A DNA stretch of 64,000 nucleotides, taken from NCBI GenBank assembly GCA_041392955.1, contig JAWKLB010000007.1, positions 24,567 to 88,566 on the forward strand, written 5' to 3'. The translations under genes and the position numbers were made by a program. The notes under the pieces were generated by a model that saw only the letters and a program-made list of their open reading frames with translations, was not told the DNA's origin and did no database searches. Of this stretch, positions 21,555 through 24,308 are shown piece after piece (position 1 is the first letter of the stretch; each line of letters begins with the position of its first letter). The stretch comes from Chitinophagales bacterium. GTDB lineage: Bacteria > Bacteroidota > Bacteroidia > Chitinophagales > BACL12.

Positions 21555-24308
21555 ATGGCTACTGTTGATAAACACCAACTACTTTTTAGTACTGATTTGA
21601 ATTACTTCAAGCAGCCTCAATTGATTGATGGAAGGTATATTTATGATAAATATAATATTGCCAGATCTAGTATAATTGTTAAGTATATAGATGAAAAATT
21701 TCAACATTTTTTAGCATATCCCATTAAAGATGGTAATAATATAGAATTTCATGGTATTAGATGTAAAGATGATGATATTAAAATATTCTCCGACCTGGAA
21801 GGCGACGAGGCGTTGAAGTATGAAAAAATTAAAGAAGAAACTGTTCATCATTATAATGATAAGATCAGATATCTTCAAAATATTGACAAGAGTAAGGCAG
21901 AATATCTTACTGCCGCTATAAAATTTATTGATGATCGATTTTTGTATTGTTATGATGATATAGTTGTTCTTGGCGCATGGGGTATGCAAATTAGGGAAAA
22001 CGTCCCGCAAGATATTACGATTATTAGAAGAAATTCTCCTCATAAGAATAAAAAAAAGAAAGAAGATAATGATGAGGAGCCTATTCCAAATGCATATACG
22101 ATTTCCTTTATAGCCGGAGACAAAGGCGAGCTACATGGACATGCATCAGTTAACAAGATCCCGAATTCCCAAATTACGGACGAGGATATACCGGTTATTA
22201 GTGCGAAGGAGGGATTTGAGTTCGTTGGTTGGGATGAATCACCCAATGGTTATATAGTTAATGGAAATAAAGAGTTTTATGCTCAGTATAAAGATGTTGA
22301 GACGACAGATGCGCGAGCGCCTTGGTGGAAAAGGTTTTGGAGGTGGCTTGCGACATTTTTTACAGGAAGTGGGTGTTTGAAATGGTTTTTACGACTATTG
22401 CTTTTCCTCATATTGCTTTTCCTGCTTTATTTGTTGTTGAGAAATGCACACGGATGTAACCGTCATTTTGTTGGAGGAGGAGCTCTTAGTGATAATGATA
22501 ATAGGTGGCAACATAGTGATCCCAATTTGGGACATGATGGCGGTATTTACGACCCATATAATCCCTATGAACCAAAACCGACACCTCCTGAATATAAAGA
22601 TGTTTTGCCCCCTCAGCAGGGTGTTTTACCTCCAAATACCGATAACCCTGAGATCATTCCCGGGAATCCATCAATTATAGCTAATCGACTTAACATTTTG
22701 ATGGAAAATGAGGACAAGTCTATCCTGGATTTCGCCAAGAGTTTCAAAGAAAAATATCCAAGCGACAGGTATAAGGTGGTATATTATGATGATGTTATTA
22801 AACGGTTGCAGATCGAAATTCCAAGGGATGAACGGGAACAATTGAAGATAGAAATTCCTTCAAAGTTTGCCCCTGAATACAAACTTTTTGTCTTTGATGA
22901 GGCATTATTTGAAGGAGCCTTTTCACCAAATGATCCGGCAATTTCAGATCCGGATAAATCATGGTATTTGAAGTCAATAAATGCCTTCAGCGCATGGGAT
23001 ATCACACAAGGCTCTGAGAATATTACTATAGCTATAGTAGATAATGGATTTACATTATCCCACCCTGAATTGAGAAGTAAGGTGGTGCAGCCATATAATG
23101 TTTGGTTACATTCAAATGATATTTTTCCTCAGGAAGATGACCACGGTACACACGTTGCAGGAATAGCCTTGGCTATCGCAGACAACGGGCTTGGTCTATG
23201 TGGCGTTGCTCCGGCCTGCAAATTTATGCCGGTGCAGGTTGCCGATAAAAATGGAATGATGACAACAACTTCTGTTCTTGACGGCATTATTTATGCCCTT
23301 TATCAGGGGGCCGACGTAATAAATGTTTCTCTTGGCAGCTCCTTTCAAGACTTGGAAAATATTTCGGAAAGTGAACAAAGAGATTTGATAAACAATCATT
23401 TCAAGGAAGAGGAGCGATTGTGGTATGAAATTATGCGCATTGCCGCTTTGCATAATTCAACAATTGTTGTTGCGGCAGGAAATAATAATATGTTAGCGGG
23501 TATAGATGCGCTTCAGCGTCCCGAACTTTTTATTACTGTGTCTGCTGTAGATGAGAATAATAACAATTTTAATAAGGCTAGTTTCAGCAATTACGGCCAA
23601 TACACAACAATATCCGCGCCAGGGGTGAATATTTTTAGTACGTATGGCAAGGAGGGTTATAGAAAAATGGACGGTACAAGCATGGCGGCTCCCATTATTT
23701 CCGGAGCCGTTGCACTAATGAAAAGCCTGAACGATTCTCTAACCAGTAAGCAGATAATATGTATTTTACAAAGCACCGGATTGCTTACAGATGGCAAAAT
23801 TGGAAAGATGTTGCAATTAGACAAGGCTTTACAAATGGTTAATTCAACCGGGATAACAAATTGTACACCAACACCTTCCTCGGGCGATGTGCAGGTTTTA
23901 TTGAACTGGGACACTTACAATGACCTGGATCTGATCGTTACTGACCCATCCGGTGAATCGGTCTGGTTCAAGAATCGAAGAGTAGCAAGCGGGGGCCAAC
24001 TTGAATTTGATATGAATGTTGAATATCCGGACAGTCAAACTCCGATGGAGAATATTTATTGGCCAAAGGGAGGAGCGCCAAATGGAACCTATAATGTGTA
24101 TCTTTTATATTATAAACAGCATGTAGATAATAATGAAAACCATTATAGAATAATCGTGAGGTGTGGCGAAAATGTAAATGAATACCCGGGAGTTATACAT
24201 AAGGAAACAGAAATTATTCATGTTTGCTCTTTTTCCTTGGGGGATCCTATCAATAACCCGAATCCGACAAATACGAACAAATCATCATATACAATTATTA
24301 CGCATTGA
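21555..24308 (+). CDS. Single-pass membrane-anchored subtilisin-like (S8) serine protease with N-terminal and C-terminal accessory domains
   Basis: The catalytic triad is in canonical order: IAIVDNG (D, nt 23040), DDHGTHVAG (H, nt 23142), GTSMAAP (S, nt 23679), with oxyanion AAGNNN. A TM helix (FLRLLLFLILLFLLYLLL) follows a ~260-aa N-terminal region. That region contains a GFEFVGWDESPNGYIV...FYAQY repeat of Listeria-Bacteroides type. A Pro-rich linker follows. The C-terminal LNWDTYNDLDLIVTDPSGE...GGQLEFDMN...GTYNVYLLYY module looks DUF2135/YfaP-like. Confidence 0.85.
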   Translation: MATVDKHQLLFSTDLNYFKQPQLIDGRYIYDKYNIARSSIIVKYIDEKFQHFLAYPIKDGNNIEFHGIRCKDDDIKIFSDLEGDEALKYEKIKEETVHHYNDKIRYLQNIDKSKAEYLTAAIKFIDDRFLYCYDDIVVLGAWGMQIRENVPQDITIIRRNSPHKNKKKKEDNDEEPIPNAYTISFIAGDKGELHGHASVNKIPNSQITDEDIPVISAKEGFEFVGWDESPNGYIVNGNKEFYAQYKDVETTDARAPWWKRFWRWLATFFTGSGCLKWFLRLLLFLILLFLLYLLLRNAHGCNRHFVGGGALSDNDNRWQHSDPNLGHDGGIYDPYNPYEPKPTPPEYKDVLPPQQGVLPPNTDNPEIIPGNPSIIANRLNILMENEDKSILDFAKSFKEKYPSDRYKVVYYDDVIKRLQIEIPRDEREQLKIEIPSKFAPEYKLFVFDEALFEGAFSPNDPAISDPDKSWYLKSINAFSAWDITQGSENITIAIVDNGFTLSHPELRSKVVQPYNVWLHSNDIFPQEDDHGTHVAGIALAIADNGLGLCGVAPACKFMPVQVADKNGMMTTTSVLDGIIYALYQGADVINVSLGSSFQDLENISESEQRDLINNHFKEEERLWYEIMRIAALHNSTIVVAAGNNNMLAGIDALQRPELFITVSAVDENNNNFNKASFSNYGQYTTISAPGVNIFSTYGKEGYRKMDGTSMAAPIISGAVALMKSLNDSLTSKQIICILQSTGLLTDGKIGKMLQLDKALQMVNSTGITNCTPTPSSGDVQVLLNWDTYNDLDLIVTDPSGESVWFKNRRVASGGQLEFDMNVEYPDSQTPMENIYWPKGGAPNGTYNVYLLYYKQHVDNNENHYRIIVRCGENVNEYPGVIHKETEIIHVCSFSLGDPINNPNPTNTNKSSYTIITH

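Follow-up and report, generated by a model that had tools for sequence, protein, structure and literature searches.

A subtilase predicted to be bitopic and encoded behind srfB and srfC is probably the counterpart of SrfA in a Bacteroidota/Fibrobacterota Srf system

What is a membrane-tethered subtilase doing directly behind two large nucleoside triphosphatases (NTPases)? The question is raised by a gene at positions 21555..24308 (forward strand) of a 64,000-nucleotide stretch of Chitinophagales bacterium DNA (contig JAWKLB010000007.1), referred to here as the window. A first-pass annotation described its product as a subtilase of 'inverted' layout, located in an 'NTPase operon', with a long N-terminal region, a transmembrane (TM) helix and a proline-rich linker ahead of the protease domain. 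The NTPase neighbours are now identified as SrfB and SrfC. SrfABC systems are widespread and are annotated as 'virulence factor' or 'toxin', while their mechanism is poorly understood. It is proposed, with a probability of about 65% for the full explanation developed below, that in Bacteroidota and Fibrobacterota the Srf system exists in a version whose SrfA-equivalent subunit is this protein, because its N-terminal domain is related to that of SrfA and because the gene order SrfB-SrfC-S8 is conserved. The layout looks inverted because it is the SrfA layout, with an SrfA-N homologue at its start, carrying a protease as its head.

The ATG at 21555 lies 5 nt past the srfC stop codon and gives the same 'MATV...' start as in homologues. 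More than 450 homologues were found, over 100 of them full-length with 59–68% identity to the window protein; their source annotation is only 'S8 family serine peptidase'. The hosts are mostly Bacteroidota known from metagenome-assembled genomes, together with Flavobacterium enshiense and Runella. Residue invariance was judged in a family alignment of 25 sequences. The gene divides as follows, with the basis of each assignment in brackets (pLDDT, predicted local distance difference test score).

21546/21555..24308, + strand: open reading frame (ORF), 917 residues if the ATG at 21555 is used
21555..24308, + strand: whole gene, SrfA-N/Flg_new/TM/Pro-rich/pro-like/S8/YfaP-like (ORF, homologues, family alignment)
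21555..22034, + strand: SrfA-N-like domain, residues 1–160, putatively cytoplasmic and docking SrfB/SrfC (hhalign, hidden Markov models (HMMs), AlphaFold2)
22035..22088, + strand: basic disordered linker, residues 161–178 (pLDDT <50 at residues 165–176; length variable in the alignment)
22089..22295, + strand: Flg_new (Listeria-Bacteroides) type repeat, residues 179–247 (sub-cutoff Pfam match, Foldseek, homologues)
22296..22439, + strand: Trp/Arg-rich juxtamembrane stretch and single TM helix, the helix at residues 277–295, nt 22383–22439 (Kyte-Doolittle, homologues)
22440..22670, + strand: post-TM Cys/Gly stretch and Pro-rich spacer, residues 296–372 (family alignment)
22671..22919, + strand: pro-like segment, residues 373–455, possibly a propeptide (position before the thermitase-aligned start)
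22920..23834, + strand: S8A (thermitase-like) catalytic domain (Pfam, thermitase match, verified residues)
23040–23042, 23142–23144, 23481–23483 and 23679–23681, + strand: codons of the catalytic residues D496, H530, N643 and S709, respectively
23847..24245, + strand: YfaP-like beta-sandwich, residues 765–897 (AlphaFold2, hhalign)

The link to SrfA begins at the N-terminus. The SrfA used for comparison is the sequence from a Klebsiella plasmid srfABC locus, whose family was collected before the profiles were compared. hhalign aligned residues 1–165 of the S8 family with residues 1–170 of SrfA over 137 collinear columns (3–149 against 3–156; probability 80%, P=1.3e-5); reversed profiles gave P=0.2–0.3, and every other domain pairing gave P>0.1. 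The two families share a core motif, AEFLxxAIKxVDDRFVYCYDDxVVLGAWGM in the S8 family and FAQLLKSVxxFPDxxFVYLVNGxLVITFWGF in SrfA, and their TM helices end alike (LLLWLLRNC and LLLGLLRGC, respectively). Residues 1–160 are thus judged, on profile comparison, to be homologous to the SrfA N-terminal domain.

Searching 1.84 billion representative sequences with the N-domain profile retrieved 238 proteins only, each matching from about residue 1–10. An SrfA_N HMM built for this work matches 37 of the best 149 of these relatives. Furthermore, the curated NCBIfam SrfA model NF040486, which scores 452 bits on the Klebsiella SrfA used as a control, matches the N-termini of several relatives (P0251, 7.6e-13; P0253, 3.1e-11; P0252, 4.2e-11), including an 857-residue S8 protein (P0340, 8.3e-6). 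Pfam and NCBIfam searches with the N-terminal and C-terminal pieces of the window protein alone gave nothing significant. The AlphaFold2 model of residues 1–255 has a pLDDT of 86.7, and about 90 in the first domain. Foldseek finds weak matches for this domain, nearly all to protein kinases (E=0.16–0.9, TM-score about 0.25); a similarly faint kinase-like fold signal has been reported for SrfA-N (bioRxiv 10.64898/2026.09.18.752743).

The same preprint describes proteobacterial SrfA as bitopic, with an N-terminal remote kinase-like domain of ~130–165 residues, a disordered linker, one TM helix and a periplasmic lipocalin, and its AlphaFold3 models place SrfB, then SrfC, on the SrfA N-domain (bioRxiv 10.64898/2026.09.18.752743). 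SrfA of Salmonella, Xenorhabdus and Klebsiella (NF040486) and the window protein have in common an N-terminal domain of ~150 residues homologous from residue 3, a single TM helix that ends in LLR[GN]C and a Pro-rich spacer. In both, the head is described or predicted as extracytoplasmic, and SrfB and SrfC are encoded in the same locus. The differences lie in gene order (B-C-A' in the window, A-B-C in the SrfA loci), in the Flg_new repeat or repeats inserted before the TM helix and in the head, which consists of the pro-like segment, S8 domain and YfaP-like domain instead of the lipocalin-like SrfA-C. By the curated NF040486 cutoff the window protein falls outside the SrfA family, though it has both the N-domain that defines the family and the genomic partners.

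Those partners are encoded immediately upstream:

15582..18692, + strand: SrfB, 1036 residues, cytoplasmic ATPase of HSP70/actin (ASKHA) type (Pfam PF07520, E=5.7e-180)
18682..21549, + strand: SrfC, 955 residues, large cytoplasmic P-loop GTPase-like protein (Pfam PF10139 Virul_Fac, E=1.2e-108)

SrfB has the invariant ASKHA phosphate motifs VDIGNSRT and VDIGAGTTD, and SrfC an invariant P-loop, GESQVGKS, followed by DLLDFPG; neither has a TM segment. From these motifs we take SrfB to be an HSP70/actin-type ATPase and SrfC a dynamin-style GTPase. Sequence and profile searches of the PDB found nothing for SrfB, and for SrfC only spurious nanobody matches. No srfA gene lies upstream of srfB in the window, where the preceding gene encodes an unrelated LamG protein. 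A scan of one genome per species yielded 68 related loci, which come from Bacteroidota, Fibrobacterota and Chitinispirillales. In 44 of them the upstream sequence extends to 6.2 kb or more, and every one of these 44 keeps the order SrfB-SrfC-S8.

The relatives retain the N-domain, the Flg_new repeat or repeats and the TM helix, and vary in the outer domain. Alternative heads include a papain-like Peptidase_C1 domain (P0264), a vWA (von Willebrand factor type A) domain (P0256) and an IgGFc_binding domain (P0255). Three relatives (P0387, P0371 and P0382) combine the S8 domain with SrfA-C; NF040486 matches the C-termini of two of them (P0387, 1.4e-21; P0371, 1.1e-18), with SrfA-C standing in place of the YfaP-like domain, and P0387 is encoded within a standard SrfB-SrfC-S8 operon. 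The gene for the IgGFc-binding head is the third gene, after SrfB and SrfC, the position of the S8 gene elsewhere; in the same operon are genes for another SrfA-N paralogue, for a papain on its own and for g4–g7 homologues (g4–g8 being the genes that follow the S8 gene in the window). The papain-head gene has a stand-alone YfaP-like gene immediately upstream (E=2e-55 with an HMM of the C-terminal domain) and a g4 homologue downstream. The product of this stand-alone gene (L072:2430-2993) has 187 residues and consists of a TM helix, a Cys-rich stretch and the YfaP-like domain. Protease and YfaP-like domain thus stay paired despite changes of protease class or gene structure.

The Flg_new repeat between N-domain and membrane is an assignment of the first-pass annotation that stands by fold and by homologues, while the Pfam models (PF09479, PF18998) stay below threshold on the window protein (E=0.013–0.076, 13.6–16.1 bits against a cutoff of 27). 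The best Foldseek match is a domain of Treponema denticola sialidase (10qf; E=7.8e-4, probability 1.0, root-mean-square deviation 2.2 Å), and the Listeria lmo0835 structures 2kvz and 2kt7 are also paired with the repeat. Homologues carry one to four copies that pass the PF09479/PF18998 thresholds (34.1 bits in P0374; 27.5 bits for PF18998 in P0259).

The TM helix, correctly recognised earlier as single and flanked by Trp and Arg, spans residues 277–295 behind the stretch APWWKRFWRW and is the sole such segment of the protein (Kyte-Doolittle maximum 2.73). No N-terminal hydrophobic segment or signal peptide was found in the window protein, as the first-pass annotation had read it. Exactly one TM helix is present in 117 of 119 full-length homologues. 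Across these 119 proteins, the 20 residues before the helix contain on average 3.8 Lys and Arg and 0.13 Asp and Glu, and the 20 residues after it 1.5 and 2.3, respectively; Lys and Arg are more numerous in the N-terminal flank in 114 of them. An N-in/C-out topology is favoured because of this charge bias, the 276-residue signal-less N-terminal region and the solubility of SrfB and SrfC. Residue 298 is Ala in the window protein and Cys in 94% of homologues.

The Pro-rich linker proved to be present and almost invariant across the family (residues ~330–372), which is unexpected for a linker. Its invariant residues are G330, I331, Y332, P334, P337, Y338, P342, T343, P345, L351, P352, P353, G356, P360, P369, G370 and P372. 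Such conservation speaks for a part in structure or binding and against a merely loose connection. In extended form the ~42 residues would reach an estimated 13 nm or so. Klebsiella SrfA likewise has a long Pro-rich stretch after its TM helix. TonB provides a functional analogy, with its N-terminal inner-membrane anchor, rigid Pro-rich periplasmic spacer, C-terminal working domain and powering at the inner membrane; there is no sequence relationship, and TonB is driven by ExbBD and the proton-motive force, not by cytoplasmic NTPases.

The S8 domain is apparently that of an active serine protease. Pfam Peptidase_S8 (PF00082) matches residues 488–739 (E=6.7e-46, 157.3 bits against a gathering score of 21.8). 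The catalytic triad and oxyanion Asn, previously read as intact, are D496 in VDNGF, H530 in DHGTHV, S709 in GTSMAAP and N643 in AAGNNN, and none of the four varies in the family alignment. Thermitase (1thm, E=4.9e-38) and other S8A enzymes are the nearest solved structures. The window protein shares the D-H-S order and oxyanion Asn of thermitase and subtilisin (MEROPS S8A), and differs from them by an N-terminal membrane anchor that takes the place of a signal peptide, an unrelated pro-region, an extra C-terminal domain and a family-specific insertion of ~25 residues. This insertion (window 23340–23430, residues ~597–625) lies directly behind the SLG substrate-cleft motif, holds an invariant FKEEERLW and is missing from thermitase and from subtilisin, as seen against subtilisin E.

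Residue 1 of mature thermitase aligns at residue 456, and the pro-like segment is directly N-terminal of this point. The earlier suggestion that it is a propeptide found no backing in comparisons: Pfam gave no match to known propeptides (Inhibitor_I9), the PDB profile search returned nothing relevant, and hhalign against the propeptide of subtilisin (AprE) gave P=0.8, with no similarity. A propeptide role is suggested by position and size only.

The C-terminal block had been likened to DUF2135. AlphaFold2 models it as an all-beta sandwich (pLDDT 88.3), and hhalign matches the family profile to residues 124–256 of E. coli YfaP (probability 97%, E=9.4e-11, 123 columns); database relatives of the domain are labelled 'YfaP (DUF2135 family)' by JGI and NCBI. 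The relationship to YfaP thus held, while the Pfam DUF2135 model itself (PF09906, gathering score 22 bits) had no match to the block at E<=10. This miss is explained by the model, which covers only 48 positions near the domain end, corresponding to YfaP 199–244 within a ~130-residue beta-sandwich (E. coli YfaP, L071:9371-10144), and leaves out LDLxVxDPxGE. W..N.DLDL.V..P.GE, the motif with the highest conservation, falls outside PF09906, so that PF09906 under-detects the YfaP domain, of which it covers only part. Foldseek of the domain against the PDB gave no match with E<0.01. The window domain shares with YfaP of the E. coli yfaS alpha-2-macroglobulin cluster the motif WxxxNxDLDLxVxxPxGE...GG.L..D; it differs in being fused to a protease and in having no alpha-2-macroglobulin genes nearby.

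The domain ends close to the stop codon. A C-terminal coiled-coil tail (RRSQLEQERDRLQQELDRVNNELRRI) present in 23 of 24 aligned homologues is missing from the window protein (window 24246–24400), and a possible out-of-frame remnant of the tail past the stop, RIELEKE*DKL, scores only marginally above shuffled controls. The T9SS (type IX secretion system) C-terminal sorting domain Por_Secre_tail had no Pfam match on the window protein, and promoter and terminator scans were at chance level.

Taken as the SrfA-equivalent subunit, the protein would work as follows. Its TM helix would anchor it in the inner membrane. The SrfA-N domain and Flg_new repeat would face the cytoplasm and dock SrfB, the HSP70-like ATPase, and SrfC, the P-loop GTPase, and the Pro-rich spacer would hold the protease and YfaP-like domain out in the periplasm. 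Nucleotide-driven changes in SrfB and SrfC would pass through the bitopic subunit to position or gate periplasmic proteolysis. The substrates may be envelope proteins, or the envelope proteins encoded in the operon (g6–g8), inside a larger trans-envelope assembly. The segment ahead of the catalytic domain would probably be an intramolecular chaperone or inhibitor.

Several points weigh against this proposal. NF040486 (cutoff 150 bits) gives the N-terminal region of the window protein no match at E<=10, and the direct profile-profile probability for its homology to SrfA-N is only 80%. The topology is a prediction, and Flg_new repeats are normally extracellular, so a cytoplasmic copy would be unusual. 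Docking of SrfB and SrfC is suggested by another group's AlphaFold3 model of a distant homologue (interface predicted TM-score 0.66). The pro-like segment has no detectable likeness to known propeptides. Finally, the genes further downstream bear no relation to their counterparts in the srf loci of proteobacteria, and the two systems may therefore differ in task.

In literature searches covering SrfB in Bacteroidetes, SrfC as a GTPase, and DUF2135, neither an SrfB-SrfC-S8 operon nor a fusion of SrfA-N to a protease was described, and the protease-bearing Srf version appears to be previously undescribed. On this evidence SrfA is a modular membrane adaptor, bearing an intact protease as its outer domain in a whole Bacteroidota/Fibrobacterota branch, and papain, vWA, IgGFc-binding or lipocalin heads in other branches. 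The Srf system gains a testable biochemical output, the predicted periplasmic proteolysis, and genetic work could start from hosts that can be cultured (Flavobacterium enshiense, F. luteum, Gelidibacter maritimus, Mongoliitalea lutea and Niastella yeongjuensis); the bare annotation 'S8 family serine peptidase' is corrected for several hundred proteins. A wider and distinctly more tentative idea is that Srf is a trans-envelope machine of an undescribed kind, in which the cytoplasmic SrfB and SrfC drive an exchangeable periplasmic head through a modular bitopic adaptor made up of the SrfA-N domain, the TM helix and a rigid Pro-rich spacer. If true, periplasmic proteolysis would be controlled from the inside out and coupled to NTP, with a subtilase and a YfaP-like domain as the Bacteroidota head, and the 'SrfABC toxin' would be recast as an envelope-remodelling or surveillance device in several phyla.

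The genes that follow the S8 gene in the window are:

24397–25374, + strand: g4, 4-TM protein
25392–26912, + strand: g5, P-loop NTPase (Walker A GIPGSGKT)
26915–29086, + strand: g6, bitopic protein
29083–30033, + strand: g7, N-anchored protein
29999–31000, + strand: g8, signal- or lipoprotein-like start, coiled coil

Among the 40 loci with at least 7 kb of downstream sequence, g4 is present in 37, g5 in 38, g6 in 33, g7 in 33 and g8 in 27. The conserved g5 product (506 residues, with duplicated N-terminal helical repeats) is the third NTPase of the operon. No Pfam or NCBIfam family was found for g4–g8, and Pfam searches with divergent g5 and g6 homologues were likewise empty. The accessory genes of the Klebsiella plasmid locus differ (L069, 4743–20805): behind srfABC come a hypothetical gene, genes for a vWA protein, an ATP-binding cassette (ABC) transporter ATPase and permease, and a SUMF1-like enzyme, and srfABC is preceded by glycine-zipper and tellurite-resistance-domain genes. 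Comparison of g4–g8 with the hypothetical, vWA, ABC ATPase and permease genes by hhalign found no homology past the Walker A motif. Several g6 homologues (L009:15161-17800, L022 and L013) have a Flg_new-like motif (e.g. GWKFIGFEL...GKLVAQYQK) just before their single TM helix, which is also where the S8 protein has its repeat; the g6 of the window is without this motif.

The whole operon is probably mobile, because it forms a low-GC island and occurs on a plasmid. Together with a 4-TM ORF at 31177–31812 it has 27–42% GC, against 43–52% (about 45%) in the flanks, with a sharp change at either end of the island (about 15.0 kb and 31.8 kb). The borders showed neither repeats, direct or inverted, nor an integrase, and the window has no tRNAs. 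On the Runella sp. SP2 plasmid pSP2_1 (L070, 1–27159), SrfB-SrfC-S8 lies directly downstream of a type I bacteriophage exclusion (BREX) cluster (pglZ, brxL) and restriction genes.

This setting bears on an unlikely alternative, a defence or conflict effector in which SrfB, SrfC and g5 sense a phage or other invader and trigger the protease, as in the anti-phage ATPase–S8 pair IetAS/IteAS. The low-GC island, the position behind BREX genes and the exchangeable heads, which are typical of conflict systems, would fit such a role, as would the weak generic matches to the PADLOC subtilase and IetS models and the IteS matches in relatives. However, the PADLOC matches are limited to the generic S8 core (IetS, E=9e-4), and what is shared with IetAS/IteAS is an S8 protease with an NTPase partner, while partners and architecture differ. 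SrfB, SrfC and g4–g8 have no convincing match to a defence model (only a 14-bit mad8 match on SrfC), the protease is predicted to be periplasmic and hence separated from phage targets in the cytoplasm, only one locus had a defence system next to it, and the island in the window is flanked by a two-component system and a starch utilisation locus, not by a defence island.

It is improbable, too, that the protease is the toxic head of an exported SrfABC-type complex, released for example in outer-membrane vesicles and acting on eukaryotic or bacterial targets. Published functional work on Srf is sparse. Lysates of E. coli that express Xenorhabdus SrfABC proved cytotoxic, and such E. coli are also insecticidal (PMC6950479); vesicle export of SrfA has been proposed in a preprint, and proteases are common as toxin domains. 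Salmonella srf mutants, however, are impaired only in swarming (PMC4219756). The window protein has a stable TM anchor, no signal peptide and no T9SS C-terminal domain, its family is hosted by Bacteroidota and Fibrobacterota that live free or in the rumen and termite gut, and the other heads (lipocalin, vWA, IgGFc-binding) bind and do not poison.

A reversed topology, with the N-domain outside and the protease acting on cytoplasmic targets, would agree with the usual location of Flg_new repeats, and intracellular subtilases do exist (e.g. PDB 7y6m, among the structure matches). It is nevertheless most improbable: translocation of a 276-residue signal-less region is unlikely, the positive-inside bias points to N-in in 114 of 119 homologues, the periplasm is the usual setting of YfaP-like and SrfA-C domains, and SrfB and SrfC, being soluble, need cytoplasmic NTP. 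The reading of the gene as an ordinary envelope or nutritional subtilase that stands next to srfBC by chance, with its N-terminal region as an unusual anchor, accords with the abundance of S8 proteases in Bacteroidota and the standard thermitase-like S8A domain, but is already largely refuted by a gene order invariant in 44 of 44 loci from several orders and two phyla, a gap of 5 nt to srfC and an N-domain that is homologous to SrfA-N and never found outside this context.

The resemblance to mycosin of type VII secretion, offered in the first-pass annotation as analogy only, is confirmed as such. Mycosin too is a membrane-tethered S8 protease in a locus of NTPase-driven envelope machinery, and TIGR03921 is the best-scoring NCBIfam model on the window protein. 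Mycosins combine a Sec signal with a TM helix at the C-terminus; the window protein, with its helix at residues 277–295, is anchored in the opposite way and belongs to a different phylum. Mycosin identity was rejected on a score far below the model cutoff (129.2 against 278.75 bits), the missing N-terminal hydrophobic segment and the lack of an ESX locus, no ESX components being found among the window neighbours (SrfB, SrfC and proteins of unknown family).

The remainder of the window holds other genes. The gene for the LamG (Laminin_G_3) protein immediately precedes the island and has no conserved counterpart in related loci:

14231–15472: LamG (Laminin_G_3) protein with a T9SS C-terminal sorting domain

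An ORF of 1842 residues enters from the left window edge (window 3–5531), and a second low-GC stretch (36–39%) occurs at about 51–60 kb. Behind the srf-type operon, at window 32066–38900, a SusC/SusD pair is followed by a cyclomaltodextrinase-type alpha-amylase, forming a starch or maltodextrin utilisation locus, which confirms that the sequence is a Bacteroidota chromosome.

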